This document shows, piece by piece, positions 63,781-63,954 of a stretch of 64,000 nucleotides of DNA. Source of the stretch: Escherichia coli. Lineage in GTDB: Bacteria > Pseudomonadota > Gammaproteobacteria > Enterobacterales > Enterobacteriaceae. Under the pieces are notes generated by a model. The model searched no databases and was not told the DNA's origin. It saw nothing but the letters and a program-made list of their open reading frames with translations. Every line of letters starts with the position of its first letter. Within the stretch, counting starts at the first letter, position 1. Location: assembly GCF_041248615.1 (NCBI RefSeq), contig NZ_CP158426.1. One strand, given 5' to 3'. A program made the translations under genes and the position numbers.

Positions 63781-63954
63781 TTAGCAGGCGCGTATCCTCG
63801 CAGATCTACGCTCACGATGCGACAATTTAATCGGTTCTTCGTCGGGTGGTGGGTCAGGCATGGGTTGCGGGCGAGGGATCGGATCGGGCACTGGAACAGG
63901 ATCGCCAGGAATCGGTTCAGGGACAGGAATTTGCAAATAAATAAGTGTCGTCAT
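63781..63954 (-). CDS. candidate proline-rich small protein (57 aa) immediately upstream of dbpA
   Basis: Not in ORF track (<60 aa). ATG preceded by strong SD GGAGGG (spacing about 6); translation MTTLIYLQIPVPEPIPGDPVPVPDPIPRPQPMPDPPPDEEPIKLSHRERRSARIRAC; stop 30 nt before dbpA start. Not recognised as a named gene. Confidence 0.35.
   Translation of the reverse strand: MTTLIYLQIPVPEPIPGDPVPVPDPIPRPQPMPDPPPDEEPIKLSHRERRSARIRAC

Follow-up and report, generated by a model that had tools for sequence, protein, structure and literature searches.

The proline-rich open reading frame upstream of dbpA in this Escherichia coli DNA is ynaL, a genuine gene that is already named and catalogued, and its recovery here is the rediscovery of an annotated gene. 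The initial annotation did not recognise the frame as a named gene and was mistaken in this, as ynaL is present in RefSeq, in Pfam and in VanOrsdel 2018. What the comparison of species adds are modest refinements, namely a selected core, a C-terminal tail that looks like a by-product and an ancestral linkage to FnrS. Like many other E. coli small proteins that have been validated, YnaL awaits a function, and the comparison narrows the search for it.

The account that we favour, and consider moderately probable, is that ynaL is an autonomous small-protein gene, with a selected X-Pro core, a by-product tail and a promoter of its own, which is co-transcribed with dbpA in E. coli and whose product is a trans-acting rod. 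In mechanistic terms, ynaL would be transcribed from its own promoter (−10 hexamer TACCCT), and in E. coli the transcript would run on into dbpA. The helicase gene would then have two sources of message, the ynaL-dbpA mRNA and transcripts from a weak extended −10 (TGcGAGGAT) located within the ynaL tail, and the YnaL peptide would act in trans as a polyproline-II-type rod binding a partner. The trans-acting binder is our preferred guess, made on amino acid-level conservation and on the autonomy of the gene.

Identity and genomic position of ynaL

The window, i.e., the whole stretch of 64,000 nucleotides that was analysed, carries ynaL near its end (Table 1). The conceptual product, MTTLIYLQIPVPEPIPGDPVPVPDPIPRPQPMPDPPPDEEPIKLSHRERRSARIRAC, has 57 residues, of which 16 are proline; translation starts at ATG (63952-63954) and stops at TAA (63781-63783). 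Position and strand, ATG start, the Shine-Dalgarno (SD) sequence GGAGGG and the richness in proline are all as initially annotated. The frame also ends ahead of the dbpA GTG on the same strand, as had been said; only the distance needed correction, from 30 to 29 nt.

Table 1 Features of the ynaL-dbpA region, in window coordinates
Feature	Position	Strand	Remarks
ynaL CDS	63781-63954	−	57 codons + TAA; ORF list, K-12 identity, RefSeq, Pfam PF23677
Shine-Dalgarno sequence of ynaL	63959-63964	−	GGAGGG; 4-nt spacer (AAAT) to the ynaL ATG
Probable −10 hexamer of ynaL	63986-63991	−	TACCCT; putative
Alternating X-Pro core	63829-63918	−	E13-I42, EPIPGDPVPVPDPIPRPQPMPDPPPDEEPI; protein-level selection
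PPP codons P35-P37	63844-63852	−	in DPPPD (codons 34-38); canonical EF-P-dependent motif
Block A	63816-63834	−	CCGATTAAATTGTCGCATC; holds TTGTCG (63820-63825); junction of E. coli- and Erwinia-type YnaL
Block B	63787-63807	−	AGATCTGCGAGGATACGCGCC; TGcGAGGAT (63794-63802); encodes YnaL tail RSARIRA
ynaL-dbpA spacer	63752-63780	−	29 nt; weak dbpA RBS CGAGAA (63758-63763); no terminator
dbpA (ATP-dependent RNA helicase DbpA)	62378-63751	−	GTG start (63749-63751)

The identification is straightforward. The Pfam profile PF23677 (YnaL) matches the 57-aa product over positions 1-57 of 57 (E 2.1e-40; 136.9 bits, cut-off 27). All 30 RefSeq rows sampled label the matching feature, beside dbpA, as ynaL, '(proline-rich small) protein YnaL', and the region was found in 5391 of the 5426 complete E. 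coli genomes. YnaL is the E. coli K-12 small protein of the b4743 class, and its Pfam name is 'Protein YnaL-like'. The gene order in K-12 (locus L001) is zntB, ynaL, dbpA, ttcA, with FnrS at 2868-2985, ynaL at 3047-3220 and dbpA at 3250 (window position = 67001 − L001 position). The amino acid sequence encoded in the window is identical to that of K-12 YnaL in the table of VanOrsdel 2018 (PMC6001520). Window and K-12 therefore encode the same protein at an equivalent site, with FnrS on one side and dbpA on the other; they differ in the SD sequence, which is GGAGGG in the window versus AGAGGG in K-12.

The protein has been detected before. According to VanOrsdel 2018 (PMC6001520), chromosomal SPA-tagged YnaL is seen by immunoblot in LB cultures, and a previous ribosome-profiling screen with tetracycline is cited in which YnaL was a positive; the same paper places ynaL between fnrS and dbpA and raises an operon with dbpA as a possibility. 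Ribosome profiling had been named in the initial annotation as a check on the frame. The option of a small protein, also raised there, is borne out by these two published detections together with the Pfam match and the pN/pS ratio given below. In the searchable literature VanOrsdel 2018 alone mentions YnaL, and we found there no paper giving a function. YnaL is absent from Weaver 2019, from a Mg-starvation small-protein study and from an Enterobacteriaceae microproteome preprint, and the searched text of the Cappable-seq, SMRT-Cappable-seq and Term-seq supplements holds no entry for the 5' or 3' ends of ynaL and dbpA.

Selection on the proline-rich core

Counted in all six frames, the window contains 419 stop-free segments that reach 57 aa or more; a length of 57 codons is thus not beyond chance, and the case for the gene therefore rests on conservation. 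In a sample of 80 dbpA loci, with one genome per species, a ynaL-like ORF lies directly 5' of dbpA in 68. Codons were compared over a gap-free core of 31 codons in 68 sequences (67 of these 68, plus K-12 L001). Over the 27 proline-rich codons, pS was 0.61 and pN 0.106 (68 sequences), which gives a ratio of 0.18 and places the ynaL core in essentially the same regime as the reference, dbpA (pS 0.62, ratio 0.10), whereas the two alternative frames over the core gave 2.5 and 5.0. Position 3 of the Pro, Asp, Arg and Gln codons of the core is near saturation, with positions 1 and 2 invariant, and the residues other than proline (D, R, Q, M and I) are as strictly conserved as the prolines. In the protein alignment the core prolines are invariant family-wide, Erwinia, Mixta and Phytobacter included. 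The conservation and codon-substitution analysis that had been proposed alongside ribosome profiling thus yielded purifying selection and no frame-disrupting variation across genera. As judged from this pattern, the functional part of YnaL is an alternating X-Pro segment of ~26-30 residues under amino acid-level purifying selection, and not the basic tail.

The signals for translation initiation are conserved as well. ATG is the start codon in 68 of 69 loci, and the SD sequence has a GGAGG core in 53 of the 69 and a 4-nt core in 13 more. K-12 of the EMG2/MG1655 type has AGAGGG (L001 3036-3041), the Escherichia clade genomes L005 and L006 have AAAGGG, and most relatives GGAGGG. Because its SD is AGAGGG and not GGAGGG, translation of ynaL in laboratory K-12 may be less efficient than is typical of the species.

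A word-indexed search returned 162 matches, all of them PF23677 and all from Enterobacteriaceae genera. The exhaustive profile search of 1.84 billion representatives returned 35, either small YnaL-like peptides or proline-rich repeat proteins, and divergent members of the family came from Erwinia, Mixta, Phytobacter and Scandinavium. By these searches the YnaL family is of narrow range, comprising Enterobacteriaceae and Erwiniaceae.

Character of the YnaL peptide

AlphaFold, supplied with the family alignment, placed no secondary structure in YnaL (pTM 0.23; pLDDT ~90 for residues 21-40), and the protein is accordingly modelled as an extended polyproline-type rod with no globular fold. A search of the PDB found no sequence relative. 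PPP is present in 65 of the 69 loci but missing from E. albertii and two Citrobacter; three loci lack PP altogether. XPPX motifs are reported to depend on EF-P (Ude 2013, Doerfel 2013), and DPPPD combines the strong contexts DPP, PPP and PPD; synthesis of YnaL probably needs EF-P at this motif. A search of the literature available found no data for ynaL on synthesis or ribosome pile-up in delta-efp cells. Its one link between EF-P and dbpA is a proteomics paper in which both proteins are higher in exponential phase, and this is uninformative.

Two likenesses of the X-Pro core deserve mention. YnaL scores far under the cut-offs of the TonB profiles (NF008084: E 2.9e-4, 20.8 bits against 315; PF16031, TonB_N: E 0.68, 11 bits against 33), and homology to TonB was rejected as a compositional effect. 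With the rigid (EP)n/(KP)n spacer of TonB it shares the alternating X-Pro pattern and a predicted extended chain; unlike TonB, it has neither a membrane anchor nor a C-terminal domain and is a free peptide of 44-64 aa. The second likeness is to the proline-rich antimicrobial peptides apidaecin, oncocin and Bac7, which carry X-Pro repeats of the PRP/PQP type and bind in the ribosomal exit tunnel. IPRPQPMP of YnaL may be compared with IPQPRPPHP of apidaecin. These antimicrobial peptides are, however, strongly cationic, secreted and eukaryotic, whereas the core of YnaL is acidic and the whole protein has 8 D/E versus 7 K/R.

Occurrence of ynaL away from dbpA

The gene is also found outside the context seen in E. 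coli. Locus L082, whose YnaL clusters with Erwinia members, reads zntB, FnrS, ynaL (51-63 aa), a clear intrinsic terminator, GGCCGGTTAGCACAACCGGCCTTTTT, then ttcA, which has a TATAAT of its own, and finally dbpA. In L085 (Phytobacter), FnrS and ynaL are followed by a terminator shared with convergent ttcA, and there is no dbpA nearby. The part common to YnaL proteins reads S-DP-VP-TDP-VP-xP-DP-IP-xP-QP-xP-DP-PP…PI, with proline at every second position. After 'PI', where block A starts, the proteins part: those of the E. coli type continue with K-L-S-H…RSARIRAC, versus xDPPPH[MR] in the Erwinia type.

Five Kluyvera loci (L071, L072, L075, L077 and L080) lack the proline-rich ORF and have kept blocks A and B. 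Sequence comparison indicates that Kluyvera has lost ynaL by deletion. About 115 nt 5' of dbpA, the Kluyvera DNA has the FnrS terminator, then ~15 nt, GCTACCCT and blocks A and B; the remnant 'LSH..RSARIRAC*' sits behind an in-frame stop.

The simplest reading of these loci is that ynaL was ancestrally tied to FnrS, not to dbpA, and is an autonomous gene, and that in the Escherichia-Citrobacter-Enterobacter-Klebsiella clade a rearrangement swapped the 3' end of ynaL and its terminator for the promoter region of dbpA. As a further point on gene order, ttcA (61314-62249, + strand) converges on dbpA in the window across a gap of 128 nt, whereas in L082 it is placed after ynaL and before dbpA, on their strand; gene order has thus been rearranged between the two families.

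The C-terminal tail and the DNA upstream of dbpA

The last ~15 codons of ynaL are frozen at the nucleotide level, with a pS of 0.057 for the IKLS codons. An alignment of the 110 nt 5' of dbpA from 81 loci revealed two invariant blocks at fixed spacing, A and B (Table 1), the latter reading AGATCTG(C/A)GAGGATACGCGCC as aligned. In 12 of 69 loci ynaL stops early (…SHR* or …SR*), 57-63 nt 5' of dbpA, with the blocks unchanged. Since these loci and the ORF-less Kluyvera both keep the blocks, their conservation is not that of a protein.

The pattern CTGn-NAnnnT stands 30-47 nt ahead of the dbpA start in 82 of 82 loci, the hexamer being GAGGAT in 73, TAGCAT and TAGAAT in three each, and GAGGGT, TAGACT and TACACT in one each. 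At the position of block B, Cedecea, Dryocola, Atlantibacter and Siccibacter have ATGACC-N17-TGcTAGAAT, TAGCAT or TAGACT, and an Erwinia-type locus has TGcTACACT. By alignment, block B is the positional homologue of an extended −10 promoter of dbpA, and it may be active as a promoter in E. coli. Because of this alignment with the outgroup extended −10, the YnaL tail KLSHRERRSARIRAC looks like a by-product of reading through into DNA that is conserved for non-coding control of dbpA. The tail overlaps this conserved DNA, and for that reason ynaL knock-outs that remove the 3' third of the gene also damage the control DNA of dbpA, which is a practical warning for future work.

A weak promoter alone does not explain the blocks, as the −10 of the E. 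coli clade (GAGGAT, at 20 nt from TTGTCG) matches the consensus less closely than those of the outgroups do, yet is invariant. Blocks A and B (63787-63834) do not vary in ~70 species even at synonymous sites, a degree of conservation beyond what a weak promoter seems to need. Behind this there is possibly a regulator site or an RNA element, e.g., an AUCU-GCGA-GGAU hairpin with a GNRA loop. Sites for sigma-28, sigma-E, sigma-32 and sigma-54 at blocks A and B were considered and dropped, being poor matches to consensus by eye, and a likeness of block A to GCCGATAA was dismissed since it has no −35 partner. In one E. coli genome (hit H30, NZ_CP142949.1) the query matches at two separate sites and the dbpA feature bears no more than the label 'RNA helicase', a hint that the 5' end of dbpA is disrupted in this strain.

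ynaL as a possible leader of dbpA

An upstream regulatory ORF for dbpA was among the options of the initial annotation. As a primary role it finds no support in the stand-alone orthologues, the loss in Kluyvera, the 14-63 nt range of distances or the folding of the intervening RNA. In its strongest form, which we regard as unlikely, ynaL would in the E. coli clade be chiefly a cis-acting uORF, whose translation, with pausing at DPPPD when EF-P or the peptidyl-transferase is limiting, controls dbpA expression. It could do so through coupling or reinitiation 29 nt downstream, by opening the dbpA initiation region or by shielding the C-rich proline codons from Rho. In all 69 clade loci that have ynaL, it is directly 5' of dbpA on the same strand with no terminator. 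The SD of dbpA is weak, with cGAGA conserved in all loci, and is followed by a GTG start, versus GGAGG and ATG for ynaL; with 46% C and 19% G, the ynaL core is rut-like, and the frequency of PPP would suit pausing. Moreover, in single-sequence folds GAUGAAGAA, just after PPP, often pairs with CUUUUUC at dbpA codons 3-5.

This long-range helix is, however, broken at one position in 5 of 38 sequences. The RNAalifold consensus fold has −4.3 kcal/mol and no compensatory pairs, and as the blocks are invariant, covariation cannot be assessed from it; neither the single-sequence folds nor RNAalifold gave a convincing conserved RNA switch between ynaL and dbpA. The ynaL stop is either 14-30 nt (57 loci) or 57-63 nt (12 loci) away from the dbpA start, and these two classes of distance are not the fixed geometry of a uORF. 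Nor is the linkage obligate, as seen in L082, L085 and Kluyvera, the last having dbpA and its upstream blocks without the ORF. A primary role as dbpA leader is disfavoured because ynaL is stand-alone and terminated in Erwinia and Phytobacter. The loci that lack any PP, and the D, R, Q, M and I residues that are conserved as strictly as proline, argue in the same direction. Adjacency to dbpA in the clade, the weak SD and GTG of dbpA and the PPP motif are compatible with a cis role added to that of the autonomous gene.

Known leader peptides offer a useful comparison. Like mgtL and mgtP (of Salmonella mgtA and mgtCBR), tnaC and secM, ynaL is a short ORF on the same strand directly before a weakly initiated gene, and it has Pro or poly-Pro codons, a strong SD and a C-rich RNA at which Rho could enter. 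The known leaders are never separated from the regulated gene and use defined alternative RNA structures or arrest motifs, whereas ynaL also occurs stand-alone and terminated and gave no convincing sign of a conserved switch structure; it conserves its whole peptide core and not the proline codons alone.

We also considered, as a long shot, that the ynaL-dbpA fusion of the Escherichia-Klebsiella clade is a sensor, in which translation of the 16-proline ORF and stalling at DPPPD, ~15 nt before block A, would tune DbpA. The DbpA helicase remodels 23S rRNA around hairpin 92, in the peptidyl-transferase centre. The signal in such a sensor, an idea just as speculative, would be Pro-Pro bond formation, set by the supply of EF-P and the maturity of the peptidyl-transferase centre. 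If the sensor were real, the invariance of blocks A and B would be that of an RNA or DNA element read by the paused ribosome.

Transcription of ynaL and the FnrS locus

FnrS had been expected near the frame and was not found within the window; it is indeed close by and just outside, at window-equivalent positions 64016-64133, 16 nt past the window end, and in L001 it is matched by RF01796 of Rfam with 134.8 bits. The order zntB-FnrS-ynaL, with ~60 nt from the FnrS T-run to the ynaL ATG, is the same throughout the loci examined, which range from E. coli to Erwinia.

For ynaL as an autonomous gene, a candidate promoter can be proposed. In 66 of 73 loci, a TAC(C/G)(C/T)T hexamer is found exactly 20 nt past the FnrS T-run. 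It keeps the T, the A and the final T of a −10 and has a C before it and an A/T-rich stretch after it; at the same site L082 has TTGCCA-N17-TATGCT, which is textbook-like. We infer that ynaL has its own promoter, with TACCCT as −10 and, as the putative −35, TTGCCT at the end of the FnrS terminator T-run, just outside the window. In L021 and L032 (Citrobacter spp.), the T-run is 11 nt from TACCCT, not 20, and because of this spacing the proposed −35 cannot apply to these two, which calls for caution in assigning the promoter. A simple consensus promoter scan of the K-12 locus called neither a ynaL promoter nor an internal dbpA promoter. The locus scan gave no terminator-like site between ynaL and dbpA, and transcription of ynaL in E. 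coli should therefore proceed into dbpA; the two genes are probably co-transcribed.

The constant order and spacing, and the overlap of the putative ynaL −35 with the FnrS terminator T-tract, could also be read as the mark of a single FNR-controlled unit of sRNA and small protein, in which ynaL would be expressed mainly by anaerobic read-through of the FnrS terminator. We consider this improbable, given the conserved −10-like hexamer between terminator and SD and the strength of the terminator, which has an 8-bp GC-rich stem and a T8 run. FnrS is FNR-dependent and is off or barely expressed under aerobic conditions, and the LB cultures of YnaL-SPA were presumably aerobic. The detection of YnaL in LB, where FnrS would be off, thus favours a ynaL promoter of its own.

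On the far side of FnrS, RefSeq annotates in L001 (1728-1775) a 15-codon ORF, 'ydaN: protein YnaN', 13 nt upstream of zntB. Its product may serve the zinc transporter gene as a leader peptide.

Chance origin, antisense frame and allelic variants

That the frame is due to chance, as the initial annotation had allowed, or is translated but young and functionless, has a negligible probability: the many stop-free segments of similar length and a few E. coli alleles with deletions or frameshifts speak for it, but it is already refuted by the substitution pattern, in-frame against the other frames and with saturated synonymous sites in 68 species, and is further opposed by conservation of the family into Erwiniaceae, by the conserved strong SD and ATG and by the published detection of the protein (PMC6001520).

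Antisense to ynaL runs a GTG-initiated ORF of 78 aa (63763-63999, + strand), rich in G, W and R, which is a mirror of the CCN codons; no sign of gene status was found for it. Among E. coli alleles of ynaL, in-frame deletions leave 46 aa (without EPIPGDPVPVP) or 36 aa (L004 = E. coli E69, upstream of 1501; P0131), and probably arose from slippage between repeated CCNGTNCCNGA(T/A)CC units. Frameshifted alleles, with tails of the P0137, P0041 and P0123 type, are also found in E. coli but are rare.
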